IMG/VR virus record: IMGVR_UViG_3300045988_007995
Span: 1-20,429 of that record
Length of the DNA: 20,429 bases
Source: a virus
Lineage: Duplodnaviria; Heunggongvirae; Uroviricota; Caudoviricetes
Direction: 5' to 3' (one strand)
Below are positions 3,382 to 20,429 of the stretch, piece after piece. Below the pieces are notes generated by a model. It saw only the letters and a program-made list of their open reading frames with translations. It had not been told where the DNA came from and ran no database searches. Every line of letters begins with the position of its first letter. The stretch's first letter is position 1. The position numbers and the translations under genes were made by a program.

Positions 3382-3389
3382 GGCAAATT

Positions 3390-4654: not shown

Positions 4655-4677
4655 TTACTGAAAATAAGGCTCCCATT

Positions 4678-4974: not shown

Positions 4975-4984
4975 GGAATTTACC

Positions 4985-5149
4985 ATGAGAGGACTTGCAT
5001 ACAATCCCGGCATTCTTCCGGCAGAAATGATTATTCGCCAACGCGTAAAGCCAATGCCATCGAGAGAGGAATTGCTTAAGAGAAATTCTTTTCCGTCAGT
5101 GAATCAAAACAAATATCTGAATGCGATGTTGCGGAGTGGGAAGAAATGA
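4985..5149 (+). CDS. hypothetical small protein (54 aa)
   Basis: ATG at 4985 preceded by GAGGAA (4974-4979); ORF-track frame 4952-5149; stop overlaps next start (ATGA at 5146). Confidence 0.4.
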
Positions 5150-5691: not shown

Positions 5692-6323
5692 GCAAGATTG
5701 ACTATCAGGCACTGCGTGAGATAGCAAAACAGGCAACACAAGGCGAATGGGTCGCATTTATTTCGTCTGGTACTGGTACGTATGCGGTGCATACGCCCGG
5801 TGATGAACGATGTGAAGACGTTATCAAATGGACCGGCTTTGATGGACAGAAAAACGCAGAGAACAACGCCCATTATATCGCAGCTTTCAACCCTGAAGTA
5901 GTGCAGGCATTACTGGATGAACTGGAAGCCAAAGACAAAGCATGGTCCGCTCAGGACAACCATATCAACCAGCTGGCTGAACGAATTGAATCGCTGGAGA
6001 AGAAGAATGGCGAGATGGGAAGATCGCTGGAAGCCGCAGAGAAGCGCATAGCAGAACTGGAAGCACGGGAAATAAAACCAGCCAAAGGCGAAGTTCTTGT
6101 CGTTGTATCTGGTTTTACTGGTTGCGGGAAAAGCGCCATTGCCGGGGAAATAGAAATTGCGATGAAAGCTATTGGTGTGTCGGTTCAGTGGACTAATGGC
6201 GATGCGGAAAAGCGCATGACAGGAGCTGACTGGCTGACAGCGATTGAGATGTACAAACCAACTGTGCGCATCGTGGAAGTTAATGTGCCACGCGCCGCAG
6301 GCATTCGCATCAAAGGAGAGTGA
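5688..6323 (+). CDS. Ead/Ea22-like family protein (coiled-coil)
   Basis: GTG at 5688 preceded by AAAGGAGG; N-terminus [21 protein letters not shown]... and central heptad-like segment (LEAKDKAW...IAELEAR) match my recollection of lambdoid Ead/Ea22-like proteins. Confidence 0.6.
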   Translation: MSKIDYQALREIAKQATQGEWVAFISSGTGTYAVHTPGDERCEDVIKWTGFDGQKNAENNAHYIAAFNPEVVQALLDELEAKDKAWSAQDNHINQLAERIESLEKKNGEMGRSLEAAEKRIAELEAREIKPAKGEVLVVVSGFTGCGKSAIAGEIEIAMKAIGVSVQWTNGDAEKRMTGADWLTAIEMYKPTVRIVEVNVPRAAGIRIKGE

Positions 6324-6324
6324 T

Positions 6325-7272
6325 ATGACCACTATTACCAAAGAGCGACTGCTGACAATCAGGCAGTGGCGCGAAACATACGGACCTGGTAGCAACGTTG
6401 TACTGCCAGCAGAAGAAGCGGAAGAACTGGCACGAATTGCTCTGGCATCGCTGGAAGCAGAGCCGATAGGTTTCCGTTGCAGGCGCAATGATAACCTTGG
6501 TGATTGGAGTTACGTATATCATCGAGAGCCAGATGATTTTGAGCGCAAACATTTAGTGATAGAGGGCATTTACGCCGCCCCTCCAGCACCGGTAGTGCCT
6601 GAAGAAGCAACTCCGGAAAACGTAGAAATGCTCTCTGGCTATGTTTCAACGTACAAATTAACCGATAGCGAGCGCGATATTGCTGCCGAAATATGGAACG
6701 CCTGCCGCGCCGCCATGCTTCAGTCCGGAAACTTTCGGGAAAACAAGAATTCGTCAACCAATAATTTTCGGGAAATCGCGGAAACGTCAACCAACTATCC
6801 GGCAATTCCTAGTGAGGTGTTGTCCGCAATCCTGAAGGTTGCCAGGATTCGTGCCGATTTCGATGATTTTGACGGTGACAGGCGAGGTATCGGTGATTGT
6901 CTGGATGAGGCTGAGCAAGAGCTTATCGTTACCATTAACAAATATGCCAGTCAGTTGGCAGCAGAACCTATAGCGCCTAATGACGTTCGAGAGCAGACAG
7001 CCATTCCACAAGTTCCGGTAACTCCGGATGGTTGGATAAGCTGTAGTGAGCGAATGCCAGAAATGGGAGAGCGACAATGCTATGTGTTAGCTGCTGACTT
7101 TAAAAACAACTACCTACCAAGCATCCCCAACACTCAGGTCGGCGTATATGGCGACTGGTTTAATGATGGCAAGCCCACTTGGGATGACGGTGGTGGCGAA
7201 GACCTGTATCTCAAGGAGGTAACCCACTGGATGCCGCTGCCAGAACCGCCGCAGGAGGTTAACCGTGGCTAA
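6325..7272 (+). CDS. DUF551-domain protein
   Basis: ATG at 6325 after AAGGAG; C-terminal segment DGWISCSERMPEMGERQCYVLAAD...THWMPLPEPP has the pattern of the DUF551 domain common in lambdoid early regions. Confidence 0.6.
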   Translation: MTTITKERLLTIRQWRETYGPGSNVVLPAEEAEELARIALASLEAEPIGFRCRRNDNLGDWSYVYHREPDDFERKHLVIEGIYAAPPAPVVPEEATPENVEMLSGYVSTYKLTDSERDIAAEIWNACRAAMLQSGNFRENKNSSTNNFREIAETSTNYPAIPSEVLSAILKVARIRADFDDFDGDRRGIGDCLDEAEQELIVTINKYASQLAAEPIAPNDVREQTAIPQVPVTPDGWISCSERMPEMGERQCYVLAADFKNNYLPSIPNTQVGVYGDWFNDGKPTWDDGGGEDLYLKEVTHWMPLPEPPQEVNRG

Positions 7273-7546
7273 CCTGCAACTTGCCGTTAAAGGTGAATAC
7301 TTCGATGCCATGATTCGCGGAGAGAAAACGGAAGAGTATCGCCTGTGTAATGACTACTGGAATAAGCGAATTATGTTCCGCGAGTATGACCGCCTGATTA
7401 TCACAAAGGGATATCCGAAGCGCGACGATTCCAGCCGCAGAATTGACGTCCCGTATGACGGATATGAAATCAAGACAATCACACATCCGCACTTCGGCGA
7501 TAAGCCGGCAAAGGTGTTCGCGATAAAGGTGAATATTGATGGCTAA
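7265..7546 (+). CDS. small PUA-like (ASCH/DUF3850-type) protein, tentative
   Basis: GTG at 7265 preceded by AGGAGG (7251-7256); 93 aa; YFDAMIRGEKTEEYR pattern reminiscent of ASCH/DUF3850 proteins (recollection only). Confidence 0.4.
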   Translation: MANLQLAVKGEYFDAMIRGEKTEEYRLCNDYWNKRIMFREYDRLIITKGYPKRDDSSRRIDVPYDGYEIKTITHPHFGDKPAKVFAIKVNIDG

Positions 7547-7841
7547 ATCAGCAGCAGAGCGCAAAGCCGCTCAGAGAGCCAGACAAGCTGCATCTGGTGT
7601 GCGTAAGCTGGAAATTGTGCTTGATGCTCAGGAAATTGAAATGCTGGAGCGTAACTGTGCCACGCGTCGCCCCGGGCGTGCGCCTTACGAATTTGGTGAG
7701 TATATAGCGTTACTGATCCGCCAGGATGATGCACGCGTGCACGGGCGTATAAAATCGATCAGCAGAAACGTTGCGGTAAGTGCGGCGAGAGAGTTCCCGT
7801 TAATTCATGCCCGTGTAATGGTGACTCGGAATGCTGGGTGA
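7539..7841 (+). CDS. hypothetical basic protein (100 aa), last gene before the packaging module
   Basis: ATG at 7539 after AAGGTG, overlapping previous stop; Arg/Ala-rich N-terminus; no HNH or other motif seen. Confidence 0.5.
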   Translation: MAKSAAERKAAQRARQAASGVRKLEIVLDAQEIEMLERNCATRRPGRAPYEFGEYIALLIRQDDARVHGRIKSISRNVAVSAAREFPLIHARVMVTRNAG

Positions 7842-7871
7842 CTAAAGGCTGGCATGAAACGAAATTAATAG

Positions 7872-7885
7872 CGTGACATGTCACG
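7872..7885. repeat. perfect palindrome CGTGACATGTCACG (copy 1 of 3 of the GTGACATGTCAC core)
   Basis: Exact dyad symmetry read directly; same 12-bp core recurs at 10138-10149 and 10531-10542. Confidence 0.9.
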
Positions 7886-7925
7886 AGTAGATTATGCATG
7901 ATGAATTTGATGGGTTTTGAATACT

Positions 7926-7951
7926 GCCGCCAACTATGGCGGCTTTATTTT
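7926..7951 (+). terminator. intrinsic terminator between the early operon and terS
   Basis: Hairpin GCCGCC-aactat-GGCGGC (7926-7943) followed by TTTATTTT. Confidence 0.7.
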
Positions 7952-7958
7952 GCATGGT

Positions 7959-7987
7959 ACTATTACCACAACGGTAACTATTACCAC
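7959..7987 (+). repeat. two exact 11-bp direct repeats ACTATTACCAC immediately upstream of the terS start
   Basis: Copies at 7959-7969 and 7977-7987 (18-bp period), ending 8 nt before the predicted terS ATG. Confidence 0.85.
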
Positions 7988-7994
7988 GGTGGTT

Positions 7995-8591
7995 ATGATG
8001 CCTGCTGAACCTAAAACCTATAAACGCAAATCAACGCAATTTAAGCCACTAACAGCAATGCAGGAGGCTTATTGCCAGTCATACATCAAAACGCCTGAAA
8101 ACCAGACTCAGGCAGCGATTAACGCAGGATTCTCCCCAAATACAGCGGCAGTTAAAGCCAGTCTCATGATGCGCGATGAACGCATTCAAAAACGGATTGC
8201 CGAGCTGATGGAAGAGCGCAACAAACGAATGCGCGTCAGTGCTGATTACGTTCTCATGCGCCTGGTGGAGATCGACCAGATGGACGTGATCGACATCCTC
8301 AACGACGATGGGAGCCTTAAGCCAATCCGCGAGTGGCCGAAAATCTGGCGCACTACGCTTAGTGGCTTTGATCTGTCATCGACCATCATGAACATGAACG
8401 AGGATTCGATAGAGACAATCCTCAAAAAAATTAAATGGCCTGACAAGGTGAAGAACCTCGAACTGATTGGTAAGCACGTCGACGTCAACGCATTCAAAGA
8501 ACGCCTGGATGTTAATGTGAATGTGACAATTGCTGATCGCATAGCGGCAGCCAGGAAGAGACTGAAAGAACGTCAGGATGGCAATCAGTGA
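7995..8591 (+). CDS. terS: terminase small subunit (P27-family-like)
   Basis: Located immediately upstream of and overlapping (GTGA) the large terminase gene; start placed at ATG 7995 (MMPAEPKTYKRK...) because the ORF-track extension from 7917 spans the terminator and direct repeats. Confidence 0.65.
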   Translation: MMPAEPKTYKRKSTQFKPLTAMQEAYCQSYIKTPENQTQAAINAGFSPNTAAVKASLMMRDERIQKRIAELMEERNKRMRVSADYVLMRLVEIDQMDVIDILNDDGSLKPIREWPKIWRTTLSGFDLSSTIMNMNEDSIETILKKIKWPDKVKNLELIGKHVDVNAFKERLDVNVNVTIADRIAAARKRLKERQDGNQ

Positions 8592-10063
8592 CAGATACAG
8601 CGTTATCTCCTGAAGAGCAGTTAATCGAGGATATTGCAGGGTTCACTCACGATCCGCTTGGCTATGCCCTCTATGCGTTCCCATGGGGGGAAGAGGGGAC
8701 TGAACTGGCACATGCCACCGGCCCACGTCAGTGGCAGGCTGATGCGTTCCGAGAGATACGTGATCACCTGCAGAATCCAGAGACGCGCTATCAGCCGCTT
8801 ATGCTGGCACGCGCTTCTGGTCACGGTATTGGTAAATCCGCATTCATCTCAATGCTGATCAACTGGGGCATGTCCACTTGCGAGGATTGTAAGGTCGTGG
8901 TGACCGCCAACACCGACAACCAGCTACGAACGAAGACCTGGCCGGAAATTATCAAGTGGTCGAACCTTGCTATCACGAAAGACTGGTTTACCTGTACCGC
9001 TACCGCGATGTACAGCAATGACCTAGGGCACGACAAGCGGTGGCGGGCTGACGCAATACCCTGGTCTGAGCACAACACCGAGGCATTCGCCGGACTACAC
9101 AACGAGCGCAAACGCATCATCGTGGTGTTTGATGAAGCGTCGAACATTGCGGATCTGGTGTGGGAAGTTGCCGAGGGTGCGCTTACGGACGAAGACACTG
9201 AGATTATTTGGGTGGCGTTCGGAAACCCTACACGTAACACCGGGCGTTTTCGCGAATGTTTCCGCAAATATAAACACCGCTGGAAAACTGCGCAGATTGA
9301 CAGCCGGACGGTGGAAGGCACTAACAAACAGCAGTTGCAGAAATGGGTTGATGACTACGGGGAAGACAGCGACTTCGTTAAAATCCGTGTGCGTGGCATA
9401 TTCCCTGATGCATCTGAATTGCAGTTTATCCCTACCGGTCTTACTGACGAGGCAATGAAACGGGTGGTAACCGCTGCGCAGGTTGCACATGCTCCGGTGA
9501 TAATCGGCGTTGACCCGGCATACTCCGGCGTTGATGACGCTGTGATATACCTGCGGCAGGGGCTACACAGTAAGGTGCTGTGGACTGGCAACAAGACTAC
9601 CGACGATCTGATTATGGCGAAGCGTATCGCTGACTTTGAAGACCAGTATCAGGCTGACGCGGTGTTCATCGACTTCGGTTACGGAACCGGTTTGAAGTCA
9701 ATCGGTGACGGCTGGGGTCGTACATGGCAACTTGTTCCGTTCGGTGGCGCGTCTACTGACCCGCAGATGCTCAACAAGCGTGGGGAGATGTTCAATTCAT
9801 GCAAGACATGGCTGAGGCTGGGCGGCATGCTGGATGACCAGGAAACAGCAGACGACCTGTCGGCGGCAGAGTACAAAGTTCGAGTGGACGGTAAAATCGT
9901 TATCGAACCGAAGGAAGATATCAAGGAGCGGCTTGGGCGTTCACCGGGTAAAGGCGATGCGCTACTGCTGACGTTTGCGTTCCCTGTGTCTAAGCGTCTG
10001 CGAATTCCCGGTCAGCAGAACCAGCAAGGCAAGGCCATCACAGATTACGATCCCTATGCTTAA
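8588..10063 (+). CDS. terL: terminase large subunit
   Basis: 491-aa ORF; GTG start overlapping terS stop; ATPase-like segment ...IIVVFDEASNI... (Walker B-like) and overall size and position typical of phage TerL. Confidence 0.85.
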   Translation: MTDTALSPEEQLIEDIAGFTHDPLGYALYAFPWGEEGTELAHATGPRQWQADAFREIRDHLQNPETRYQPLMLARASGHGIGKSAFISMLINWGMSTCEDCKVVVTANTDNQLRTKTWPEIIKWSNLAITKDWFTCTATAMYSNDLGHDKRWRADAIPWSEHNTEAFAGLHNERKRIIVVFDEASNIADLVWEVAEGALTDEDTEIIWVAFGNPTRNTGRFRECFRKYKHRWKTAQIDSRTVEGTNKQQLQKWVDDYGEDSDFVKIRVRGIFPDASELQFIPTGLTDEAMKRVVTAAQVAHAPVIIGVDPAYSGVDDAVIYLRQGLHSKVLWTGNKTTDDLIMAKRIADFEDQYQADAVFIDFGYGTGLKSIGDGWGRTWQLVPFGGASTDPQMLNKRGEMFNSCKTWLRLGGMLDDQETADDLSAAEYKVRVDGKIVIEPKEDIKERLGRSPGKGDALLLTFAFPVSKRLRIPGQQNQQGKAITDYDPYA

Positions 10064-10104
10064 TCCGCTGGTGGGGATAATGTCGTTGATATCCTCTGGT
10101 GAGG

Positions 10105-10133
10105 ATAAAACAAAGCCAGCTCATAGGCTGGCT
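10105..10133 (-). terminator. minus-strand intrinsic terminator downstream of the opposite-strand gene pair
   Basis: Hairpin AGCCAGC-ctatga-GCTGGCT followed on the minus strand by TTGTTTTAT; protects terL from antisense read-through. Confidence 0.5.
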
Positions 10134-10137
10134 GTTT

Positions 10138-10149
10138 GTGACATGTCAC
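10138..10149. repeat. palindrome GTGACATGTCAC (copy 2), 4 nt downstream of the gene A stop codon
   Basis: Exact 12-bp palindrome; flanking context CTGtTTGTGACATGTCACGGtGTTA nearly identical to copy 3. Confidence 0.9.
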
Positions 10150-10153
10150 GGTG

Positions 10154-10486
10154 TTATTTCGGTAGATTGTGTTTGGCATTCGACTCGTCTATCACGTAAC
10201 GCATTGCAGTTCGACCGAGATTACCAGGATCTTCATGCAGACTCACTCGTGCCTTTAGGAGCACACATTCAGCCTTGACATAGTTTGCTGGAATTATTCC
10301 TACCTCGGCATTTTTAAATGCCTCCTTCACCGCCTCACCGTTGTACTGACCGCCAAGCAACTCTGTACATGTCAGGTTGTTATGGATAATTGCAAGGAGA
10401 TCTTTAATCTCTTCACGCAGGTTTACAATCGCCATCGCGGCATTGATAGCTGCGGCATAGCGCTCAGCTGCAGTCTTCTCTTTCAT
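10154..10486 (-). CDS. hypothetical 110-aa protein (opposite-strand insert gene A)
   Basis: Minus-strand ORF; start placed at MKEKTAAERY... (ATG complement at 10484-10486) preceded by AAGGTGA; the only long ORF in this interval on either strand. Confidence 0.55.
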   Translation of the reverse strand: MKEKTAAERYAAAINAAMAIVNLREEIKDLLAIIHNNLTCTELLGGQYNGEAVKEAFKNAEVGIIPANYVKAECVLLKARVSLHEDPGNLGRTAMRYVIDESNAKHNLPK

Positions 10487-10498
10487 GATTTTCACCTT

Positions 10499-10525
10499 AA
10501 AAAAATGCCCGGCGAATCGGCGGGC
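10499..10525 (-). promoter_or_regulatory. conserved hairpin plus T7 tract directly upstream of gene A RBS (copy 1 of duplicated 5' element)
   Basis: Minus strand reads GCCCGCCGATTCGCCGGGCATTTTTTTAAGGTGAAAATCATG; terminator-like stem GCCCG/CGGGC then U-tract, immediately followed by the RBS. Confidence 0.5.
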
Positions 10526-10530
10526 TGATT

Positions 10531-10542
10531 GTGACATGTCAC
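10531..10542. repeat. palindrome GTGACATGTCAC (copy 3), 4 nt downstream of the gene B stop codon
   Basis: Exact 12-bp palindrome in context CTGaTTGTGACATGTCACGGcGTTA. Confidence 0.9.
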
Positions 10543-10546
10543 GGCG

Positions 10547-10969
10547 TTAGAAGGTTATTTTATCGAATGCGGCGTTGATTGCCTTGGCGTCCTGCTCAGC
10601 ACCAACCACATCAAGTAAAGATCTTTTACTAAGCACTTCAGCCAGGCATTGTAACTTCATGTTGTATAAGTTTTCGCGCATGTAATCATCATCACTTTTT
10701 TCTTTGGCGTATACAGCGCGAGAAATATCAAACACATTGCCTTTTTCCATTTCAGTTTTCTGCGCTGAAATCCAGTCATGGCAAGTAACTCCTATTCCAT
10801 GGTCATCGCTAAGCGTTAACCCGGCAAGTCGCTCACCTGGAATTGCTTCACAAAGCATTTCATTTCCTGCAAAAACACCATAAAAAATTGAGTCATCACC
10901 CTGAACAATGCGTACATATTTGCACGGCCATTCATTTAGATATTTAGCTAGCATGTCGGCTGTTTTCAT
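10547..10969 (-). CDS. hypothetical 140-aa protein (opposite-strand insert gene B)
   Basis: Minus-strand ORF; start placed at MKTADMLAKY... (ATG complement at 10967-10969) preceded by TAGGTGA; upstream ORF-track extension crosses the hairpin/T-tract and is rejected. Confidence 0.55.
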   Translation of the reverse strand: MKTADMLAKYLNEWPCKYVRIVQGDDSIFYGVFAGNEMLCEAIPGERLAGLTLSDDHGIGVTCHDWISAQKTEMEKGNVFDISRAVYAKEKSDDDYMRENLYNMKLQCLAEVLSKRSLLDVVGAEQDAKAINAAFDKITF

Positions 10970-10979
10970 GATCTCACCT

Positions 10980-11005
10980 AAAAAAAATGCCCGGCGAATC
11001 GGGCG
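10980..11005 (-). promoter_or_regulatory. conserved hairpin plus T8 tract directly upstream of gene B RBS (copy 2 of duplicated 5' element)
   Basis: Minus strand reads CGCCCGATTCGCCGGGCATTTTTTTTAGGTGAGATCATG; about 40 nt alignable with copy 1. Confidence 0.5.
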
Positions 11006-11045
11006 AACTGGAAGCAATGAGTTATGCCTTCCGTGGCTGTACTGG

Positions 11046-11085
11046 TTTACAGCATGAAGCCATCGCAATGGCGTCATGCTGTAAA
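11046..11085. repeat. 40-bp near-perfect nested palindrome
   Basis: TTTACAGCATGA-aGCCATcgcaATGGCg-TCATGCTGTAAA: 12-bp outer arms with a 5-bp inner dyad. Confidence 0.85.
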
Positions 11086-11124
11086 AAGGGCGGTGATAGT
11101 CCTTCAAGGGAAACCATCACCGCC
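11083..11124 (-). terminator. minus-strand terminator 43 nt downstream of the tRNA
   Basis: 9-bp stem GGCGGTGAT/ATCACCGCC with 18-nt loop, followed on the minus strand by CTTTTT. Confidence 0.5.
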
Positions 11125-11167
11125 AAGCCCCTGGAACTTCTGGCATCACGGTCCTTAGGCGTGATTC

Positions 11168-11244
11168 TGGCGTGGCATGCAGGATTCGAACCTGCGACCA
11201 ACCGCTTAGAAAGCGGTTGCTCTGTCCAGCTGAGCTAATGCCAC
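11168..11244 (-). tRNA. tRNA-Arg (anticodon UCU), phage-encoded
   Basis: 77-nt cloverleaf on the minus strand: acceptor GTGGCAT/ATGCCAC, D-stem GCTC/GAGC, anticodon stem ACCGC/GCGGT with loop TT-TCT-AA, T-stem GCAGG/CCTGC with TTCGAAT loop, discriminator G and encoded CCA. Confidence 0.85.
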
Positions 11245-11671
11245 AACGCTGAGAGCACTTAGCCTGTTAAGGCGCCACACTTTGTCGCGGCTCCATAAAT
11301 GCTCTCATCGTTGTACCCTCGTCTCTTCCGAGGCGTCACACCGAATCGCCGGGATGGTGAATCCCCGTGCGCGGAATAAAACCGCTCGACTTGCACATTC
11401 CGGCTACCTGGTTCGTTTGCCACAGCCAGGGAGGGTGCCCCTTAAACGTATCCAGACCGCTATCGGCGCATGTGCCATACGCCGTACTGCTCAAAATAAA
11501 AGCTCACTCCACCTGTTCAATTTAACGACAAGCCAGTCAGGTTAGTAACCGGAATGAACTCTTTGGTTACCTGAAAGGTAATAATTTGTGCGTTAAATGT
11601 CAACTACCTACGATAAATAAATCATATGTGGTTAAATTGGTAATAATTTAATTGCGTACGGAGTCATTGAT

Positions 11672-11878
11672 ATGTGCATGGGTAGCTCACCATCAGTGCC
11701 TGCAACACCAGAAGTTCAGGCAGCACCACAGGAGCAGGATGCCGCCGTTGTTGATGCCCGCGACGAAGAAACTCGTCGCCGTCGCGCTGCTGCTGGTCGT
11801 AGTTCTACGCTGCTTACCGGTTCTCAGGGCGACACATCAACCGCTAATACCAGCGGTAAAACGCTGCTTGGTCAGTAA
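11672..11878 (+). CDS. small virion-associated protein candidate (T7 gp6.7-like?), 68 aa
   Basis: ATG at 11672 preceded by GGAG; begins MC..., Ser/Pro/Ala-rich; immediately upstream of the portal gene, whose leader shares the motif CGGAGTCATTGA(t/a)ATG. Confidence 0.45.
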   Translation: MCMGSSPSVPATPEVQAAPQEQDAAVVDARDEETRRRRAAAGRSSTLLTGSQGDTSTANTSGKTLLGQ

Positions 11879-11892
11879 CCGGAGTCATTGAA

Positions 11893-13572
11893 ATGGCGGA
11901 AACAACTAAAGAGCGATTGAACAAACAGTTCGCACAACTTGAAAGCGAGCGTCAGTCGTTCGAGCCGCACTGGCGCGAGTTGAGTGATTACATCAACCCG
12001 CGTGGTTCCCGCTTTCTGACTTCTGAGGTCAACCGTAACGATCGACGCAATACACGCATTATTGATTCGACCGGGACTATGGCGGCGCGCACTCTCGCCA
12101 GCGGCATGATGTCAGGCATCACAAGCCCCGCGCGTCCGTGGTTTCGCCTGGCTACGCCAGATCCTGAAATGATGGATTATGGCCCTGTTAAGTTGTGGCT
12201 TGAGGCGGTGCAGAACCGCATGAACGATATGTTCAATAAGTCGAATCTCTATCAGTCGCTGCCGCAGTTATACGGAAGCCTCGGCACATACAGCACTGGT
12301 GCAATGGCAGTGCTGGAGGATGACGAGGACATCATTCGCACAATGCCATTCCCGATAGGCAGTTACTACCTGGCTAACTCACCTCGTGGCAGTGTGGACA
12401 CCTGTTTTCGCAAGTTCTCTATGACTGTTCGTCAGCTTGTTCAGGAGTTCGGGCTAAATAACGTCAGCGAATCCGTAAAAAGCATGTGGGAAAGCGGAAC
12501 CTACGAGAAGTGGATTGAAGTGATGCATTCGGTTTACCCGAACATTGACCGCGATACATCGAAGCTGGATAGCAAGAACAAGCCATTCAAATCGGTTTAT
12601 TACGAGGTTGGTGGCGATAACGACAAGTTGTTGCGTGAGTCCGGATTCGATGAGTTTCCAATTATGGCTCCGCGCTGGGAAGTTAACGGCGAAGATGTTT
12701 ATGGATCATCATGCCCGGGTATGCTGGCGCTTGGACCTGTTAAGGCATTGCAGCTTCTCCAGAAGCGCAAGTCGCAGTTGATTGATAAAGCCACCAATCC
12801 GCCGATGGTTGCTCCGACTTCCCTCAAGAATCAGCGTGCCTCCCTTCTTCCTGGCGACATCACGTATATCGATCAGATTACTGGTCAGGATGGTTTCAGG
12901 CCTGCTTATCTGGTTAACCCCAGTACAGCAGATTTGGTGGCAGACATTCAGGACACCCGTCAAATCATTAACAGCGCCTACTTTGTCGATCTGTTCATGA
13001 TGTTGCAGAACATCAATACCCGCTCGATGCCTGTTGAAGCGGTGATCGAAATGAAAGAAGAAAAACTTCTGATGTTGGGGCCGGTTCTGGAGCGTCTGAA
13101 CGACGAATGTCTTAATCCTCTCATTGACCGCGCTTTCTCGATGATGGTGCGTAAAAACATGCTGCCGCCACCGCCTGACGCGATGGAAGGTATGCCCCTG
13201 AAGGTCGAATACATTTCCGTCATGGCTCAGGCGCAGAAGTCTATCGGCCTGTCCAGTCTGGCGTCTACGGTCAACTTCATTGGTCAACTTGCGCAAGCGA
13301 AACCAGAAGCTCTCGACAAACTCAACGTTGATCAGGCGATCGATGCATTCGCTGATATGTCCGGAGTGTCTCCAACCGTCATTGTTCCGCAGGAACAGGT
13401 TGAGCAGGCTCGCCAGCAACGGGCACAGCAACAACAGCAGCAACAAATGATGGCGATGGGGATGGCGGCGGCACAGGGTGCCAAGACGCTAAGCGAAGCT
13501 AAAACTTCGGATCCGAGTGTTTTGTCAGCTATGGCGAATGCAGTTAGTGGTCAGGGTGGGCAATCACAATGA
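11893..13572 (+). CDS. portal (head-to-tail connector) protein, T7 gp8-like
   Basis: 559-aa ORF following terL; C-terminal Q/A/M-rich tract (QQRAQQQQQQQMMAMGMAAAQGAK) resembles the T7 connector C-terminus as I recall it. Confidence 0.8.
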   Translation: MAETTKERLNKQFAQLESERQSFEPHWRELSDYINPRGSRFLTSEVNRNDRRNTRIIDSTGTMAARTLASGMMSGITSPARPWFRLATPDPEMMDYGPVKLWLEAVQNRMNDMFNKSNLYQSLPQLYGSLGTYSTGAMAVLEDDEDIIRTMPFPIGSYYLANSPRGSVDTCFRKFSMTVRQLVQEFGLNNVSESVKSMWESGTYEKWIEVMHSVYPNIDRDTSKLDSKNKPFKSVYYEVGGDNDKLLRESGFDEFPIMAPRWEVNGEDVYGSSCPGMLALGPVKALQLLQKRKSQLIDKATNPPMVAPTSLKNQRASLLPGDITYIDQITGQDGFRPAYLVNPSTADLVADIQDTRQIINSAYFVDLFMMLQNINTRSMPVEAVIEMKEEKLLMLGPVLERLNDECLNPLIDRAFSMMVRKNMLPPPPDAMEGMPLKVEYISVMAQAQKSIGLSSLASTVNFIGQLAQAKPEALDKLNVDQAIDAFADMSGVSPTVIVPQEQVEQARQQRAQQQQQQQMMAMGMAAAQGAKTLSEAKTSDPSVLSAMANAVSGQGGQSQ

Positions 13573-13865
13573 CAGATTACGAAGACGATCAACTGAAAGA
13601 AGAAAACGCCCGTAAGCAACGTGACATGGCACAGCGTGAAATTGATGACATTTGCTTTGTCATGAGCAGTGAACAGGGGCGTCGCGTTGTCTGGTCGGTG
13701 CTGGAGAAAGGCCGTGTGTTTTCCGCTATCTCACCGATGGACGCTATGGCAATGGCATTTAATGAGGGGCAACGCAATCTGGCGCTGGAACTGTTTCAGC
13801 GCGTTATGGCGCATTGCCCTGAACAGTATTTGAAGATGGCCAAAGAGGCCAGTGAACAGGAGTGA
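13569..13865 (+). CDS. hypothetical protein (98 aa) between portal and scaffold genes
   Basis: ATGA overlap with portal stop; acidic; no motif assigned. Confidence 0.5.
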   Translation: MTDYEDDQLKEENARKQRDMAQREIDDICFVMSSEQGRRVVWSVLEKGRVFSAISPMDAMAMAFNEGQRNLALELFQRVMAHCPEQYLKMAKEASEQE

Positions 13866-13867
13866 TC

Positions 13868-14563
13868 ATGAATTTATTTGAGCGTTTGCTGTATCGCCGT
13901 CTTTGCAATGAGCAACCAGTCGATGGTGGAGCAGCTCCGGCTGCGTCAGAACCGTCAGCGCCTGCAGGTGATAACCCTGCTCCAGTTGGTGATCCATCAC
14001 AACAGGAAGGTGATAAGCCACAACCTGTTGCTGATGGCGATAAACCTGCTGATGACAAAAAGCCTGAAAACGATAAGCAGGATGAAAAAAAGGACGGCGA
14101 TAAACCAGAGGGTGCGCCTGAAAAGTACGAGTTTCAGGCTGCCGAAGGCGTAGAGCTGGATACAGAAGCGTTGAAGGAATTCGAGCCGGTGGCGCGAGAA
14201 CTAAACCTGACCAACGAGCAAGCGCAAAAGCTGGTTGATGCTTATCCGAAGATTCTGGCAGGTGTTCAGCAGCGCCAGGCAGAAGCCTGGCAGAAAACAA
14301 CCGAGCAGTGGGCAGCGGATGTAAAAGCCGACAAAGAAATCGGTGGCGACAAGTTGATTTCTAACCTTAGCGCCGCACAGCGTGCGCTTGACCAGTTCGG
14401 GACACCTGAACTCAAAGAATATCTGAACACCACCGGGCTGGGTAATCACCCTGATCTGGTCAAAACGTTCGTGAAAATCGGAAAGGCGATGTCTGAAGAT
14501 GGCATGGTCACCGGTGGTAATGAAGGCCAGCGTAGTGCGGCCGAAGTGCTCTATGGCAAATAA
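13868..14563 (+). CDS. putative scaffolding protein (acidic, Pro/Asp/Lys-rich N-terminal region)
   Basis: ATG at 13868 after AGGAG; low-complexity acidic segment (PAASEPSAPAGDNPAPVGD...DKPADDKKPENDKQDEKKDGDKPEG); sits directly upstream of the capsid gene. Confidence 0.5.
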   Translation: MNLFERLLYRRLCNEQPVDGGAAPAASEPSAPAGDNPAPVGDPSQQEGDKPQPVADGDKPADDKKPENDKQDEKKDGDKPEGAPEKYEFQAAEGVELDTEALKEFEPVARELNLTNEQAQKLVDAYPKILAGVQQRQAEAWQKTTEQWAADVKADKEIGGDKLISNLSAAQRALDQFGTPELKEYLNTTGLGNHPDLVKTFVKIGKAMSEDGMVTGGNEGQRSAAEVLYGK

Positions 14564-14571
14564 GAGAGGAA

Positions 14572-15564
14572 ATGACAATGGCTGTTAAAGGCTTAACTGC
14601 GCTAACGCTGGCTGACTGGGGTAAGCGCGTCGATCCAAACGGGAAAGTCGATAAGATTATCGAGCTTCTCGGTCAAACTAACCCGATCCTTCAGGATATG
14701 CCTTTTGTCGAAGGGAACCTTCCTACCGGACACCGAACCACCATTCGTTCTGGTTTACCTTCAGCTACCTGGCGTTTGCTGAACTATGGCGTACAGCCAA
14801 GCAAATCAACCACAGTGCAGGTAACCGATTCCGTTGGCATGCTGGAAACCTATGCGGAAGTCGATAAGTCACTGGCTGATCTGAACGGCAATACCGCCGA
14901 ATTCCGCCTGTCTGAAGACCGCGCATTTATTGAAGCGATGAATCAGCAGATGGCGCAGACGCTGTTTTATGGTGATTCCAGCGTTAACCCTCAGCAGTTT
15001 ATGGGACTGTCCTCCCGCTATTCCAGCCTGTCTGCGGGTAATGCTCAGAACATCATTGATGCTGGTGGCACGGGTACAGATAACACCTCAATCTGGTTAG
15101 TGGTGTGGGGCGAAAACACCGTGCATGGCATCTTCCCGAAAGGGCAGAAGGCTGGCATCCAGATGGAAGATAAAGGCCAGGTGACACTGGAAGATGCTAA
15201 TGGCGGCAAGTACGAAGGCTATCGCACCCATTACAAATGGGATAACGGACTTGCTCTGCGTGACTGGCGTTATGTTGTTCGCATTGCAAACATCGATGTC
15301 AGCAATATTTCAGAACCATCCTCTGCCGCAAATATTGCGAAGTTGATGGTTAAAGCACTACATCGCATTCCAAACCGTGGCATGGGCCGCCCGGTGTTCT
15401 ACATGAACCGCACTGTAGGCCAGGCTCTTGATCTGCAATCTCTGGAGAAAACATCTCTGGCTATCAGCGTAAAAGAGACTGAAGGCGAGTGGTGGACTTC
15501 ATTCCGTGGTGTACCAATCCGTGAAACTGATGCGCTTCTGGAAACAGAATCCCGCGTGGTGTAA
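14572..15564 (+). CDS. major capsid protein
   Basis: 330-aa ORF after GAGAGGAAA, in the canonical position after portal and scaffold; assignment by size and synteny, not motif. Confidence 0.65.
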   Translation: MTMAVKGLTALTLADWGKRVDPNGKVDKIIELLGQTNPILQDMPFVEGNLPTGHRTTIRSGLPSATWRLLNYGVQPSKSTTVQVTDSVGMLETYAEVDKSLADLNGNTAEFRLSEDRAFIEAMNQQMAQTLFYGDSSVNPQQFMGLSSRYSSLSAGNAQNIIDAGGTGTDNTSIWLVVWGENTVHGIFPKGQKAGIQMEDKGQVTLEDANGGKYEGYRTHYKWDNGLALRDWRYVVRIANIDVSNISEPSSAANIAKLMVKALHRIPNRGMGRPVFYMNRTVGQALDLQSLEKTSLAISVKETEGEWWTSFRGVPIRETDALLETESRVV

Positions 15565-15615
15565 CGCCTGTTATTAACCTGTGGGTCGTAACAGACCCAC
15601 TAATGGAGAAAGAAG

Positions 15616-16053
15616 ATGATCACCGACAAACTGTTGATGTTCTCCGAAGCTCAGGCGGTTACGAATACCGCGGCTTCTACTGACGTAATCGATCTCGGTC
15701 CAATTGACGGAAAACGTCGTGATATCGGCGTGGGTTACCCGCTTGAGTTTTGGGCGCTGGTTAACGCAGCCGCCGCGGCAAGCGGTGATGCAACTGTAAA
15801 CATCCAGTTGCAGACGAGTGAGAATAACAGCTCATGGACCACTATTTATGATAGTGGCGCACTGGCAAAGACCGCCCTGACAGCAGGTAAACGAGTTGTT
15901 TCTGCAAAGGTGCCTGCCGGTGTTCAGCGATATCTGCGTGTTAACTACTCCGTCGCAACTGGCCCACTAACGGCTGGCAAATTCACTGCGGGTATCAGTC
16001 TGGATGTTGATGCCAATACGCCGTACCCGATCCGCTCAAAAGTAACTGGTTAA
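15616..16053 (+). CDS. hypothetical virion protein (145 aa, beta-rich composition)
   Basis: ATG after GGAGA; within the head gene block; Thr/Ser/Ala/Val-rich. Confidence 0.5.
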   Translation: MITDKLLMFSEAQAVTNTAASTDVIDLGPIDGKRRDIGVGYPLEFWALVNAAAAASGDATVNIQLQTSENNSSWTTIYDSGALAKTALTAGKRVVSAKVPAGVQRYLRVNYSVATGPLTAGKFTAGISLDVDANTPYPIRSKVTG

Positions 16054-16063
16054 GGTGATATCG

Positions 16064-16399
16064 ATGTCAGGTGAGAAACCAAGATACCGCGTTCTGCGCC
16101 TCTCTCATATCCATAACACTCTGTGGCCGGAGGGGGCAGAAATCGAATACGAAGGTGAGCCTGGTAGCGCACTGGAACCTGTTAACGATGCAGCCAGACA
16201 GGCAAAAGCAAAAGTTGCAGGAAAGGTGTCAATGGCAGCAACCAGCACCAAAATCATCAACGATGTGTCAGATGATGGTGAACTGGATAAGCTCCGTGAA
16301 GAGTACGAATTGCTCTTTAACGAGAAGCCACACCATAACGCCAAAGCCGAAACGCTACGCGAGAAGATCGCAGATAAGCGTAAAGAACTGGGCGTGTAA
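16064..16399 (+). CDS. hypothetical protein (111 aa)
   Basis: ATG at 16064 preceded by AAGGTGA (16052-16058); followed by a strong terminator. Confidence 0.5.
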   Translation: MSGEKPRYRVLRLSHIHNTLWPEGAEIEYEGEPGSALEPVNDAARQAKAKVAGKVSMAATSTKIINDVSDDGELDKLREEYELLFNEKPHHNAKAETLREKIADKRKELGV

Positions 16400-16415
16400 G
16401 CCTCGCGAATCAGAC

Positions 16416-16437
16416 AAGGGGCTTCGGCCCCTTTATT
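16416..16437 (+). terminator. intrinsic terminator after the head gene block
   Basis: Hairpin GGGGC-TTCG-GCCCC (UUCG tetraloop) followed by TTTATT. Confidence 0.75.
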
Positions 16438-16455
16438 GCAGGAGTATAGAAACTT

Positions 16456-17061
16456 ATGGCCTCTGTAGTAGAGATCTGCAATCGTGCGCTGTCCAATATT
16501 GGCAACAGCCGCAGCATTAACAGCCTGACGGAAGCCAGCAAGGAAGCGGGGGAATGTTCGCTGCACTTTGAGGCCTGCCGTGATGCTGTGCTTTCTGATT
16601 TTGACTGGAACTTTGCTACCAAACGCGTGGCGCTTGCAGATACGAGCAATCCACCGCCTGACTGGGAATATGCGTACCAGTACCCGTCAGATTGTCTGCG
16701 CATTACTGAAATTATGCTTCCTGGTGTACGCAATCCAACAGCAGCAATGCGCGTTCAGTACGAAGTTGGTGCAGACACCAACGGAACAGGAAAATTGATC
16801 TACACAGACCAGCCGCAGGCATGGCTCAAGTATGTCTCTCGCGTTTCAGATGTAAACATGTTTGATGCCATTTTTATGGAGGCGCTGGCCTGGCGTCTTG
16901 CGGCAGCCATTAACATGGCGCTGACTGGGAATGCGGATCTCGGTACATTTGCTCTCAATATGTACAATCGCGTGATTCTTAGTGCTGGCTCGCATAGCCA
17001 GAATGAATCACAGGAACCACAGCCACCGGTTGACGAGTTTACCATTGCGAGGTTGTCCTGA
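16456..17061 (+). CDS. tail tubular protein A / adaptor (T7 gp11-like)
   Basis: 201 aa; N-terminus ...NRALSNIGNSRSINSLTEA resembles the gp11 family pattern as I recall it; size and position next to an 823-aa partner fit the gp11/gp12 pair. Confidence 0.5.
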   Translation: MASVVEICNRALSNIGNSRSINSLTEASKEAGECSLHFEACRDAVLSDFDWNFATKRVALADTSNPPPDWEYAYQYPSDCLRITEIMLPGVRNPTAAMRVQYEVGADTNGTGKLIYTDQPQAWLKYVSRVSDVNMFDAIFMEALAWRLAAAINMALTGNADLGTFALNMYNRVILSAGSHSQNESQEPQPPVDEFTIARLS

Positions 17062-19532
17062 TGGCTATCAGTTGGATCCAGCCCAGCTTTGCCGGTGGTG
17101 AGATTGGACCGTCGTTGTACGGGCGTATTGACATGGCGAAGTACCAGGTGGCATTGCGCAAGTGCGATAACTTTATCGTGCGGCAGTATGGCGGCGTTGA
17201 GAATCGACCAGGTACGCGTTTTGTCGGTGCCGCCAAATACCCAAATCGGAAATGCCGCCTGATCCCGTTCCAGTTCTCGACGGTTCAGACCTATGCTCTG
17301 GAGTTCGGACACCAGTACATGCGCGTTATCAAAGATGGTGCGTTGGTGCTGAACAGCAGCAATGTTATTTATGAAATTGCCACGCCATATACTGAAGCCG
17401 ATCTGTTCCGAATTAAATTCACGCAAAGCGCCGACGTGCTTACGCTTGTTCATCCGGCATACCCGCCGAAAGAGTTGCGTCGCTATGCGCATGACAACTG
17501 GCAACTGGTTGATGTGGTAACGAAGAACGGACCATTTGAAGATATCAATATTGACGAGTCAGTGACGGTTTATGCCAGCGCCAGCACCGGGACAATTACG
17601 TTAACGGCAAGCGCCTCTATTTTTGGCGCGGAGCAGGTAGGCAAATTGTTCTATCTGGAACAGCCTGCAGTGGATTCTGTGCCGGTATGGGAAACCAGTA
17701 AGAGTACGTCAATTGGCGATATTCGCCGTGCAGACAGTAACTACTATCGCGCCGTTACAGTAGGCAAAACAGGCACTTTGCGCCCTTCGCATACAGAAGG
17801 CACATCATGGGATGGCTGGGGCGGATCCGGTGATGATGATACCGGCATTGAGTGGGAGTATCTGCACAGTGGTTTTGGCATTGCCCGTATCTCTGCTGCA
17901 AATGGAACTACTGCAACTGCCGAGGTGATTTCCTATATCCCTTCGCAGGTAGTTGGCGAGGATAATGCCAGCTATAAATGGGCTAAATATGCCTGGAACA
18001 GTGTTAATGGTTATCCTGGCACTGTTGTTTATTATCAACAACGTCTTTACTTCGCCGCATCGACTGCGTTTCCTCAGACTATCTGGGCCAGCCGTACCGG
18101 GGATTATAAGGATTTTGGCAAAAGCAATCCTACGCAGGATGACGACAGAATTATCTACACCTATGCCGGGCGTCAGGTTAATGAGATCCGCCACCTGATT
18201 GATGTTGGTTCGCTGGTGGCGCTGACTTCCGGAGGTGAGTACGTCATCACTGGCGACCAGAACAAAGTGCTTACCCCATCACCATTTGCATTCAGCTCTC
18301 AGGGATCAAATGGCTCGAGCAATGTCCCACCAATTGCCGTGGCGAATATTGCTCTGTTCGTCCAGGAGAAAGGCAGTGTTGTCCGTGATCTGGCCTACTC
18401 ATTCGATGTTGACGGCTATCAGGGGAACGACCTTACTATCCTTGCCAATCATCTTTTTCAGAAGCACAGCATTGTTGACTGGTGCTTCTCAATAGTCCCT
18501 TACTCCAGCGCCTTCTGCATCCGTGATGACGGTAAATTACTGGTGATGACCTATTTGCGTGATCAGCAGGTTTTTGCATGGGCACCACAATCCAGTACCG
18601 GAAAATATGAAAGCACATGCAGTATCAGCGAAGGCAATGAAGATGCGGTGTATTTCGTCGTTAACCGAACCGTTAACGGGCAAACAGTGAGATACATCGA
18701 GCGACTGTCCAGCCGTTTATTTACCAGCGATGAAGATGCTTTCTTTGTTGATTCTGGCCTTAGCTATGATGGAAGAAATACGTCTGACAGAACGATGATC
18801 ATCACTGGTGGTTCTGGCGAATGGGATTACCGCGCGGAATATACAATCAGTGTTTCTGGTGGTGCGTACTTCACCAGTAGTGATGTCGGCGCGCAACTAC
18901 AGTTCCCTTATACCGGAACTGATCCTGATACTGGCGATGAGGTGTCAAAAGAATTACGTTGCGACATTATTTCTGTAACCAGCAATACCGCTGTAGTGGT
19001 TCGTGCTAACAGGAACGTCCCGCCATCCCTCAGGAATGTGGCCACCACGAACTGGCAGATGGCGCGCCGGACATTTGGAGGCCTGTCTCATCTTGAAGGC
19101 CAGACCGTAAACATTCTCTCTGATGCGAACGTGGAACCACAGAAAGTGGTTTCCGGAGGTGCCGTCACGCTGGAATCACCGGGGGCTGTAGTGCACATCG
19201 GCCTGCCAATAACTGCTGAATTCGAAACACTGGATATCAACATTAACGGACAGGAAACGCTGCTGGACAAAAAACAGGTGATCCCGTCCGTTACTCTGGT
19301 TGTGAATGCCAGTCGCGGCATCTGGGCGACTACGCCCGGCGGTAAATGGCACGAATATCCACAGCGTGAATTCGAGTTCTACGATGATCCTGTTGATGAT
19401 GCTACCGGAAAAGTAGAAGTGAAACTGGACAGTAACTGGGGCAAAAACGGGCGTGTAAAAATCCGTCAGCTTGACCCGTTGCCGCTGTCTGTTCTTGCCG
19501 TTATTCCTCGCCTTACTGTTGGGGGATTCTGA
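17061..19532 (+). CDS. tail tubular protein B / nozzle (T7 gp12-like)
   Basis: 823-aa ORF, ATG overlapping upstream stop (TGATG); size and synteny with the gp11-like gene. Confidence 0.5.
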   Translation: MAISWIQPSFAGGEIGPSLYGRIDMAKYQVALRKCDNFIVRQYGGVENRPGTRFVGAAKYPNRKCRLIPFQFSTVQTYALEFGHQYMRVIKDGALVLNSSNVIYEIATPYTEADLFRIKFTQSADVLTLVHPAYPPKELRRYAHDNWQLVDVVTKNGPFEDINIDESVTVYASASTGTITLTASASIFGAEQVGKLFYLEQPAVDSVPVWETSKSTSIGDIRRADSNYYRAVTVGKTGTLRPSHTEGTSWDGWGGSGDDDTGIEWEYLHSGFGIARISAANGTTATAEVISYIPSQVVGEDNASYKWAKYAWNSVNGYPGTVVYYQQRLYFAASTAFPQTIWASRTGDYKDFGKSNPTQDDDRIIYTYAGRQVNEIRHLIDVGSLVALTSGGEYVITGDQNKVLTPSPFAFSSQGSNGSSNVPPIAVANIALFVQEKGSVVRDLAYSFDVDGYQGNDLTILANHLFQKHSIVDWCFSIVPYSSAFCIRDDGKLLVMTYLRDQQVFAWAPQSSTGKYESTCSISEGNEDAVYFVVNRTVNGQTVRYIERLSSRLFTSDEDAFFVDSGLSYDGRNTSDRTMIITGGSGEWDYRAEYTISVSGGAYFTSSDVGAQLQFPYTGTDPDTGDEVSKELRCDIISVTSNTAVVVRANRNVPPSLRNVATTNWQMARRTFGGLSHLEGQTVNILSDANVEPQKVVSGGAVTLESPGAVVHIGLPITAEFETLDININGQETLLDKKQVIPSVTLVVNASRGIWATTPGGKWHEYPQREFEFYDDPVDDATGKVEVKLDSNWGKNGRVKIRQLDPLPLSVLAVIPRLTVGGF

Positions 19533-19996
19533 TGATCGATGTTCAAATTATTCCCGCTACCGAAGAGCATCTTCAGATGATTTTGCCGGATGTTCGTCAG
19601 GCTGATATTGACGAACTGTATGCGGTATCGCTGATGACTACCAAAGATGCGCTGCGTGTTGGTCTGCGTACTGCGACTATGGCCTGGTCAGGGTTCGCGA
19701 ACGGAGAACTGGTAACCATGTTTGGCGTATCTCCGGCGTCAATGATCGGTGGCAATGGTACGCCCTGGCTGGTCGGAACCAGCCGTATCGAAAAATATCA
19801 GAAGACATTTCTTCGCCACTGCCGCCCTGTATTGCAGCAGATGCTGGCAGTTTATCCGCGCCTGGAAAACTATGTCGACGAGCGAAACCATGTTGCCAAA
19901 GCATGGCTGCACTGGCTTGGATTCAGGCTTGAAGAAGCCGCGCCTTATGGTGCTCTTGGTCTTAATTTCCACAGATTTCACATGGAGAGAAAATAA
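19532..19996 (+). CDS. hypothetical protein (154 aa), possible internal virion protein
   Basis: TGATG overlap with the upstream gene; position corresponds to T7 gp13. Confidence 0.45.
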   Translation: MIDVQIIPATEEHLQMILPDVRQADIDELYAVSLMTTKDALRVGLRTATMAWSGFANGELVTMFGVSPASMIGGNGTPWLVGTSRIEKYQKTFLRHCRPVLQQMLAVYPRLENYVDERNHVAKAWLHWLGFRLEEAAPYGALGLNFHRFHMERK

Positions 19997-20429
19997 TGTG
20001 CGATCCGGTTATTGCTGGTGGCGCAATGCTCGCCATGAGTGGCATTCAGGCATACACCCAGCACCAACAGGGAAAGTATGCCTCGAAGGTTGCAGAAGCG
20101 AACGCAGATATAGCCACAGCTCAGGCAAATGATGCAATAAACAGAGGTAACGCTGAAGCTGAGCAACGACGCAGAGAGACCCGACAGCGGCTTGGTACAC
20201 AGGCGGCGACAATGGGGGCTACCGGCGCTGATTTATCTACAGGTAACGCGCTGGATATATTTGGCGACACTGCCCAGTTTGGCGCTCTTGATTCGCTGAC
20301 GACGGTGAATAACGCGCAACGCGAGGCTTACGGTTATCAGGTTCAGGCTGCCAACTATAAAGCAGAAGCCAGTTCAGCCCGTAAACAGGGGAATGTGGGA
20401 GCAGCAACAACATTGCTCACTGCGCCTCT
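19996..20429 (+). CDS. 3'-truncated internal virion / ejection protein candidate (T7 gp14-like)
   Basis: ATG at 19996 after GGAGAG; frame open to the window end; begins MC followed by a hydrophobic segment (VIAGGAMLAMSGIQA) then an Ala/Gln-rich region. Confidence 0.45.
   Translation, partial: MCDPVIAGGAMLAMSGIQAYTQHQQGKYASKVAEANADIATAQANDAINRGNAEAEQRRRETRQRLGTQAATMGATGADLSTGNALDIFGDTAQFGALDSLTTVNNAQREAYGYQVQAANYKAEASSARKQGNVGAATTLLTAP

Follow-up and report, generated by a model that had tools for sequence, protein, structure and literature searches.

Hardies et al. (2016; PMC4819975) have already described homology between the tail and ejection proteins of phage epsilon15 and those of T7. 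In that study, epsilon15 gp12 gave strong matches to T7 gp12 when hidden Markov models were compared with each other, the epsilon15 homologues of internal virion proteins A and B were called 'very standard', and the epsilon15 terminase and capsid grouped with siphovirus lineages. The epsilon15 record (AY150271) itself remarks that gp11 resembles T7 tail tubular protein A, that gp8 resembles Bbp16 and that gp13 is GNAT-like. ZX5 is a short-tailed phage and a member of Uetakevirus (PMC9782041). For BPP-1 and Carin-1, solved structures of virion parts are available; the name Carin-1 for the 8ck structures was taken from our fold-search table, and a literature search on the codes 8CK0 and 8CK1 found no paper. 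Here we analysed the viral record IMGVR_UViG_3300045988_007995 over its 20,429 nucleotides, which we refer to as the window. Our subject is a tight series of open reading frames (ORFs) on its plus strand, at positions 11672-20429.

We read this block as the virion genes of a phage that is temperate and short-tailed and belongs to the phiV10/epsilon15 (Uetakevirus) type, and assign this reading a probability of about 0.93. The element itself is probably a prophage of Escherichia coli or a close relative. When positions 11600-20429 were compared with phages by megablast, 13 phage records showed at least 80% query coverage. DNA identity was 98-99% for phiV10, ZX5, PAS61, phiv142-3, TL-2011b and the O157 typing phages 9 and 10. 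The alignment with phiV10 itself (98.3% identity, 100% coverage) falls into two pieces because a single 317-bp stretch is absent from the window. EC.W1-9 (PP445227) aligns in one piece at 97.5% identity, and epsilon15 is more distant, at about 75%. The genes of the block correspond one to one with the annotated genes p06-p17 of phiV10 (NC_007804) and gp3-gp14 of epsilon15. Thus, by identity and colinearity with phiV10 p06-p17, the block is a Uetakevirus-type virion module. Its features, all on the plus strand, are as follows.

11672-11878, plus strand: 68-amino acid (aa) protein beginning MCMGSS, counterpart of epsilon15 gp3 and phiV10p06 (phrog_831)
11893-13572, plus strand: portal protein of the T7 gp8 type, 559 aa (PF12236, PDB 8ck0_A, PHROGs)
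13569-13865, plus strand: Bbp19-like protein, 98 aa (PF25181, E 6.8e-17)
13862-14563, plus strand: probable scaffolding protein, 233 aa (position and composition; likely start ATG 13868)
14572-15564, plus strand: major capsid protein of the epsilon15 gp7/BPP-1 type, 330 aa (PF20911, NF045672; likely start 14578)
15616-16053, plus strand: capsid cement or decoration protein of the Bbp16 family, epsilon15 gp8 homologue, 145 aa (PF21190)
16055-16399, plus strand: epsilon15 gp9 homologue, equivalent to phiV10p12, 114 aa (phrog_590; likely start 16064)
16416-16437, plus strand: GC-rich hairpin AAGGGGC-UUCG-GCCCCUU followed by a TTTATT tail, a probable attenuating intrinsic terminator
16456-17061, plus strand: tail adaptor (tubular tail protein A) modelled with a T7 gp11-type fold, 201 aa (8ck1_E, fold search)
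17061-19532, plus strand: tail nozzle (tubular tail protein B), distant relative of T7 gp12, 823 aa (8ck1_A, profile)
19532-19996, plus strand: probable T7 gp13 homologue (internal virion protein A), 154 aa (phrog_308)
19996-20429, plus strand: T7 gp14-type ejection protein, N-terminal 144 aa, cut by the window end (PF24072)

The head genes tie the block most directly to epsilon15 and BPP-1. The capsid protein matched PF20911 at E 9.4e-149 (494.9 bits) and the NCBIfam model NF045672, 'MCP_gp7_epsi_15'. Among solved structures its best match was the capsid of BPP-1 (3j4u_A, 4.7e-128), followed by Carin-1 (8cjz_Y, 1.7e-87) and epsilon15 (3j40_A, 1.6e-85). The 145-aa protein encoded next matched PF21190 at E 3.5e-47 (159.9 bits), as well as the BPP-1 'cementing protein' (3j4u_H, 4.1e-26) and the Carin-1 'Capsid Decoration Protein' (8cjz_B, 1.3e-22). 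Together, a GP7-family capsid and a Bbp16-family cement protein define a capsid of the BPP-1/epsilon15 type, in which the major capsid protein has the HK97 fold. The portal matched PF12236 (Head-tail_con) at E 1.6e-187, scoring 624.3 bits against a cut-off of 27, which places it in the T7 gp8 family; its best solved match was the portal 8ck0_A (E 5.7e-179), and both it and T7 gp8 gave reciprocal matches to phrog_332 and phrog_449. A gene for a Bbp19-like protein comes after the portal gene, a position that it also has in BPP-1 and in the distant contig L012.

The 233-aa protein is probably the scaffold. It is acidic, its N-terminal part is rich in proline, aspartate, alanine, glutamate and lysine, and its gene lies between the portal and capsid genes; position and composition point to this role, and the start at ATG 13868 is favoured because phiV10 is annotated in this way. 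We found no family for it. We also considered that it might be a protease, a label that derives from phrog_458 and from the annotation of the epsilon15 homologue as a 'putative endoprotease'. As the protein has no Pfam peptidase match, we regard this as a database label without support here.

The relationship of the second half of the block to T7 is distant, but it is real. The 823-aa protein matched the Carin-1 'Tail Nozzle' (8ck1_A, E 1.5e-216). A profile built from eight nozzle sequences picked out gp12 as its sole match among 19 T7 late-region proteins (hmmsearch, 2.4e-6), and hhalign aligned residues 304-400 of the window protein with 321-428 of T7 gp12 (8e-5, probability 61%). The protein has no Pfam match, including to PF25675 (Phage_nozzle), to which T7 gp12 itself scores 1274.6 bits. 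For the 154-aa protein and for T7 gp13, phrog_308 was the best match of both (E 1.3e-62 and 1.1e-42, respectively), whereas the Pfam score of the 154-aa protein to PF11090 was 13.7 bits, under the cut-off of 25. The epsilon15 record notes an HHpred match of the homologue, gp13, to a GNAT-family acetyltransferase. The last ORF starts MCDPVIAGGAMLAMSG, that is, with Met-Cys (MC) and then a hydrophobic stretch. Although truncated by the window end, it scored 29.1 bits to PF24072 (T7_gp14) against a cut-off of 27, and so belongs to that family; it also matched phrog_418, 'internal virion protein'.

When modelled, the 201-aa protein resembles a T7 gp11-type adaptor, and here the T7 link comes from the fold search only. 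At the sequence level it matched the Carin-1 'connector' (8ck1_E, E 2.9e-26). It had no Pfam match at E<=1, and thus none to PF17212 (Tube), and a 20-sequence adaptor profile gave no link to T7 either in hhalign against T7 gp11 or in a search of PDB sequences. Its AlphaFold2 model had a predicted local distance difference test score of 75.5. With this model, Foldseek retrieved the adaptors of Carin-1 (5.2e-15), LME-1 (3.8e-8) and T7 (gp11, 7box_M; 6.9e-6, template modelling score 0.56); adaptors of Carin-1, LME-1, PhiM1, KP32 (tail tubular protein A) and P-SCSP1u stood at or near the top.

Taken together, the tail and ejection half of the block is distantly related to T7 gp8, gp11, gp12, gp13 and gp14. 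Gene order agrees from the portal through adaptor and nozzle to the gp13-like and gp14-like genes, the portal (PF12236) and the gp14-like protein (PF24072) are in T7's Pfam families, a terminator follows the capsid gene in both, and MC starts occur in both the small pre-portal protein and gp14. One could therefore argue that the entire block, head genes included, is a module of T7 lineage (Autographiviridae type) that moved into a lambdoid genome with only its terminase shifted, the more so as the order parallels T7 genes 6.7-8-9-10-Tphi-11-12-13-14. We consider this very improbable. The capsid protein is in PF20911/NF045672 and does not match PF21703 (T7 gp10), and the scaffold-like protein does not match PF05396 (T7 gp9). 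In addition, the 201-, 823-, 68- and 154-aa proteins miss PF17212, PF25675, PF17570 and PF11090, respectively, and there is no pairwise similarity to T7 proteins. The block contains Bbp16-type cement and Bbp19-like genes, which T7 lacks. Its closest relatives are BPP-1, Carin-1 and epsilon15, a placement that contradicts a T7 origin, and the trees of Hardies et al. (PMC4819975), with the epsilon15 terminase and capsid among siphovirus lineages, do so as well. General differences from T7 include the temperate lifestyle of the phage and the lack of annotated phage RNA polymerase promoters in its relatives.

These results bear on an earlier reading of the same DNA, made from the letters alone and here called the sequence-only reading, which proposed a T7-like virion module under lambda-like control with the terminase ahead of the portal. 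It is partly supported: right for the tail and ejection half, it claimed too much about the head genes, gp6.7 and control. All the ORFs of its gene series are present on the plus strand where it placed them, and only the Bbp19-like gene was left out. The glutamine-rich C-terminus that it described in the portal was borne out (21% glutamine in the last 75 residues versus 6.8% over the whole protein), as was the position of terS and terL (7917-10063) upstream of the portal, unlike in T7, where the terminase is at the far end. Its view of the 201- and 823-aa proteins as tail-tube-like agrees with the gp11-type fold and with the gp12 profile match, and its pairing of the 154-aa and MC-hydrophobic proteins with gp13 and gp14 agrees with phrog_308 and PF24072. 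It had named membership of the 201- or 823-aa protein in a long-tail family as an outcome that would overturn it; no long-tail family takes in any protein of the block, and the close relatives are short-tailed (PMC9782041). In contrast, the scaffold and capsid parallel T7 gp9 and gp10 by position only, and capsid, scaffold and terminase are of families unrelated to those of T7. The two extra genes it saw at 15616-16399 exist, the first encoding the Bbp16-type cement protein and the second a gp9-like protein. The terminator that it placed between the capsid and tail genes is likewise a real hairpin, but it had been taken for a departure from T7; since T7 has Tphi between genes 10 and 11, the hairpin is a parallel.

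Comparison with the individual relatives shows which parts of this arrangement are constant. phiV10 and its relatives have the same genes in the same order from p06 to p17, the same hairpin, and the same palindromes ahead of terS and p06. They differ from the window in having p13 (Gp10-like), in the genes between terL and the 68-aa gene, and in their early mosaic. EC.W1-9 has the gp10-less junction of the window and differs from it upstream of terS, where cro and replication genes take the place of an N-cIII-Sak4-SSB operon. epsilon15 shares the gene series gp3-gp14 and a capsid protein of the same family, but carries gp10, which the window lacks. BPP-1 and Carin-1 (PDB 8cjz, 8ck0, 8ck1) share the order portal, Bbp19, scaffold, capsid, cement, small gene, adaptor, nozzle, BPP-1 giving the best solved match of the capsid protein and also a match of the cement protein, whereas the portal, adaptor and nozzle have their best solved matches in Carin-1; their sequences are more distant. 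In BPP-1 there is no gp13-like gene in the corresponding position, and a Gp10-like gene, bbp20, follows the portal.

Several points weigh against reading the block as a Uetakevirus-type virion module with T7 kinship. First, the early half is a different mosaic, so that coverage of the whole window does not reach 80% in any complete E. coli genome. Second, the window is 20 kb long and ends before the remaining ejection genes, the tailspike, the lysis genes and the integrase. Third, BLASTP and phmmer comparisons of 13 window proteins with the 19 T7 late-region proteins gave nothing significant, and the T7 link is made by profiles, PHROG co-membership and one predicted fold. Last, a Gp10-like 'capsid staple' gene (PF21628; PDB 3j40_N), present in phiV10 and epsilon15, is cleanly absent at 16399-16456.

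The absence of this gene could mean that the element is a decaying, non-functional prophage, with loss of the staple as a mark of degradation and no infectious particles formed. The 317-bp stretch that contains the gp10-like gene in phiV10 and epsilon15 is missing, no such ORF occurs elsewhere in the window, and PDB entry 3j40 includes epsilon15 gp10 in its model, as a capsid protein. Nevertheless, we think decay improbable. Apart from this loss the ORFs are intact, and they share 98-99% identity with their counterparts in phages that propagate. The junction is clean: the hairpin and an AGGAG Shine-Dalgarno sequence (16440-16444) run straight into the adaptor gene, and AGGAG, 11 nt before the adaptor ATG, now serves the adaptor. 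Of 5426 complete E. coli genomes, 68 show exactly this junction and 433 have the gene. The junction is also found in EC.W1-9, a phage isolated from sewage, and no Gp10-like ORF is present anywhere in the 40.6-kb genome of that phage. In BPP-1, too, no such gene separates the cement-side genes from that of the adaptor, its homologue bbp20 being placed elsewhere. The Gp10-like gene is typical of phiV10 (phiV10p13 matches PF21628 at 7.4e-52) and of epsilon15, but it does not define the taxon, and we retain the reading of the block as a Uetakevirus-type virion module. No similarity was found between the Bbp16-like and Gp10-like proteins, and we therefore treat them as different proteins. With this natural lineage, in which the epsilon15 gp10 staple is missing, the contribution of gp10 beside a Bbp16-type cement could readily be tested.

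The hairpin at this junction has a 7-bp G+C-rich stem and a UUCG loop. It is kept in phiV10, and its epsilon15 equivalent is annotated as a rho-independent terminator. A scan of 7000-20429 for consensus promoters and terminators gave counts at or below chance and missed this hairpin because its T run is short. We believe that it is a probable attenuating intrinsic terminator, in the same relative place as T7 Tphi.

The 68-aa protein at the head of the block belongs to a large and uncharacterised family. An exhaustive search returned 1627 clusters (50% identity) at E<=0.001, and 105 of 116 full-length members start with MC. The members share a Met-Cys start that is nearly invariant, a stretch rich in proline, the motif RRRR..G..STILTG and, at the end, KTLLGQ. 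In a few longer members the cysteine is preceded by a hydrophobic N-terminal extension, perhaps because the start was miscalled. In distant contigs, members lie upstream of PF12236 portal genes, either immediately or with one gene between, as at these two loci:

Contig L011, 3178-3381: member of the 68-aa family
Contig L012, 1868-2068: member of the 68-aa family

The BPP-1 small pre-portal protein, bbp22, has the C-terminal motif of the family in common but not the MC start. No Pfam family (including PF17570, gp6.7) and no NCBIfam family was found for the 68-aa protein, and its profile gave only chance matches in PDB and no solved structure.

The sequence-only reading had drawn a parallel between this protein and T7 gp6.7 and had put both MC-initiated proteins at positions of T7 internal or ejected proteins. 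For the gp14-like protein this is correct, as its MC start and that of T7 gp14 (MCWAAAIP...) reflect homology; gp14 of T7, epsilon15 and phiV10 all start with MC. For the 68-aa protein, the likeness to gp6.7 (MCFSPKIK...) lies in small size, a place ahead of the portal and an invariant Met-Cys start, the last found in all 69 gp6.7 relatives retrieved. The places are not identical: the 68-aa gene ends 15 nt before the portal gene, and in T7 three genes separate 6.7 from 8. When a 106-sequence alignment of the 68-aa family was compared with the gp6.7 family alignment by hhalign, residues 1-4 only were aligned, with a probability of 13%. In an hmmsearch of the 19 T7 proteins with the 68-aa profile, gp6.7 scored E 0.003 through its MCF..PK start only, and gp7.3 scored about equally. 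Because only four residues align between the two families, we do not claim homology and treat the equivalence as an analogy.

In T7, gp6.7 is an ejected protein whose residues 2-15 are wrapped around the barrel of the portal (PMC11784390), and this provides a testable model for the 68-aa protein. By analogy, we tentatively suggest that in phages of the epsilon15/BPP-1 type the family might do what gp6.7 (or gp7.3) does in T7, as a portal-binding small internal protein that is ejected, although we hold this to be doubtful at present. The common second-position cysteine could reflect a shared N-terminal chemistry for building or releasing the ejection apparatus, for instance modification after removal of the methionine. 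We looked in the literature for work on this cysteine in gp6.7 or gp14, with no relevant result. As a very large family of small Met-Cys proteins encoded ahead of T7-type portals, it is a candidate for a small follow-up study.

Lambda-like control is seen in the window for the early region only. The relevant features upstream of the block are as follows.

1699-2043, plus strand: N peptide (PF25694, E 6.9e-32)
2045-2728, plus strand: Nmad5
2937-2995, plus strand: Lambda_thermo, the cIII thermoregulator element (Rfam RF01804, 88.5 bits)
2957-3196, plus strand: ORF with a Kil domain
3390-4070, plus strand: Sak4
4067-4654, plus strand: SSB
4678-4974, plus strand: Abc2 anti-RecBCD protein
5655-6323, plus strand: Ead/Ea22
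6244-7272, plus strand: DUF551
7536-7841, just upstream of terS: 101-aa ORF, candidate late-unit regulator (phrog_536 'transcriptional regulator', no Pfam family)
7917-8591, plus strand: small terminase subunit, terS (PF03592 Terminase_2, E 1e-29; phrog_51)
7963-7995: two tandem TTACC-N5-GGTAA-type palindromes (7963 and 7981) ahead of terS (pattern search)
8588-10063, plus strand: large terminase subunit, terL, equivalent to phiV10p02 (phrog_5902, phrog_2)
11567-11581: TTACC-N5-GGTAA palindrome TTACCTGAAAGGTAA, about 90 bp ahead of the 68-aa gene (pattern search)

The plus strand upstream of terS (1699-7272) is a lambdoid pL-type early operon. An N antiterminator and a cIII control element, as in lambda-type early regulation, are both present, and positions 1-7500 are, within this 20-kb window, closer to Shiga toxin (Stx)-converting lambdoid phages than to Uetakeviruses. 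To this extent the lambda-like control proposed by the sequence-only reading stands.

The late genes are another matter. Control in the manner of lambda would mean that terS and all genes downstream are expressed from one late promoter, with a Q-type antiterminator that allows read-through of terminators. The lambdoid operon upstream, with N, the cIII element, Kil and Abc2, would be in keeping with such control, and a promoter-like GTGACA-18-CATGAT at 7873-7902 together with a hairpin and T run at 7926-7952 recall lambda pR'-tR'. However, both are consensus matches of a kind that is no more frequent than expected by chance. Among the ORFs in 1-7900, neither Pfam nor PHROGs revealed a Q-type antiterminator, though the gene may have its place beyond the window. 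There are also at least two late units, with genes and a tRNA on the minus strand between them, and each is preceded by a conserved palindrome. We therefore regard Q-type control of the late genes as unlikely, if somewhat less so than the other alternatives discussed above.

The TTACC-N5-GGTAA pattern has three matches in the window against 0.38 expected, found only ahead of terS and ahead of the 68-aa gene. The palindromes occur at the same places in phiV10, epsilon15 and EC.W1-9, and the epsilon15 record labels the equivalent palindromes as repressor binding sites. Judged by its distribution and conservation, this pattern looks like a shared operator of the two late transcription units. The hairpin GCCGCC-AACTAT-GGCGGC, followed by TTTATTTTG (z-score -2.75), lies inside the terS ORF as called from TTG 7917; therefore, terS probably starts at ATG 7995, as in epsilon15. 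This start, which we consider the likely true one, is downstream of the operators, and the epsilon15 annotation gives the same shorter form of terS with the operator upstream of the start.

Based on these gene identities and on the family and fold assignments, we propose a model for how the products of the block act, drawing its mechanism from the solved structures of T7, Carin-1, BPP-1 and epsilon15. With the portal as the base, the putative scaffold and the capsid protein would build a shell, and this shell would be filled with DNA by the terminase. The cement protein would then bind to the outside of the expanded shell. The portal channel would be closed by an adaptor and a nozzle, for which we infer a 12-mer and a 6-mer, respectively. 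The gp13-like protein may serve as an assembly factor and the gp14-like protein as the first ejection protein. On infection, the gp14-like protein and internal proteins encoded downstream, possibly together with the 68-aa protein, would be ejected and form a channel across the cell envelope. Finally, as a result of the hairpin that follows the capsid and cement genes, the tail genes are probably transcribed less than the capsid genes, an effect that Tphi has in T7.

The object is thus a known phage module whose kinship with T7 is already in the literature, and the meaning of our results lies mainly in annotation. The genes of the block can be confidently labelled as portal, scaffold, capsid, cement, adaptor, nozzle, gp13-like and gp14-like, the scaffold with the qualification given above, and database labels such as 'protease' and 'hypothetical protein' can be corrected.

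Two further regions lie outside the operon and the virion block.

107-1326: two ORFs before the N gene, of 97 aa (DUF6932, just below cut-off) and 309 aa (phrog_18731)
10154-11244, minus strand: ORFs of 127 aa (phrog_27507) and 186 aa (phrog_4846), and tRNA-Arg(TCT)

The first region is situated where lambda has immunity-region accessory genes, and its ORFs may be 'moron' or defence genes. The second lies within the 1.6 kb between terL and the 68-aa gene. It varies among the relatives, and it contains a strong terminator-like hairpin at 11124-11089.

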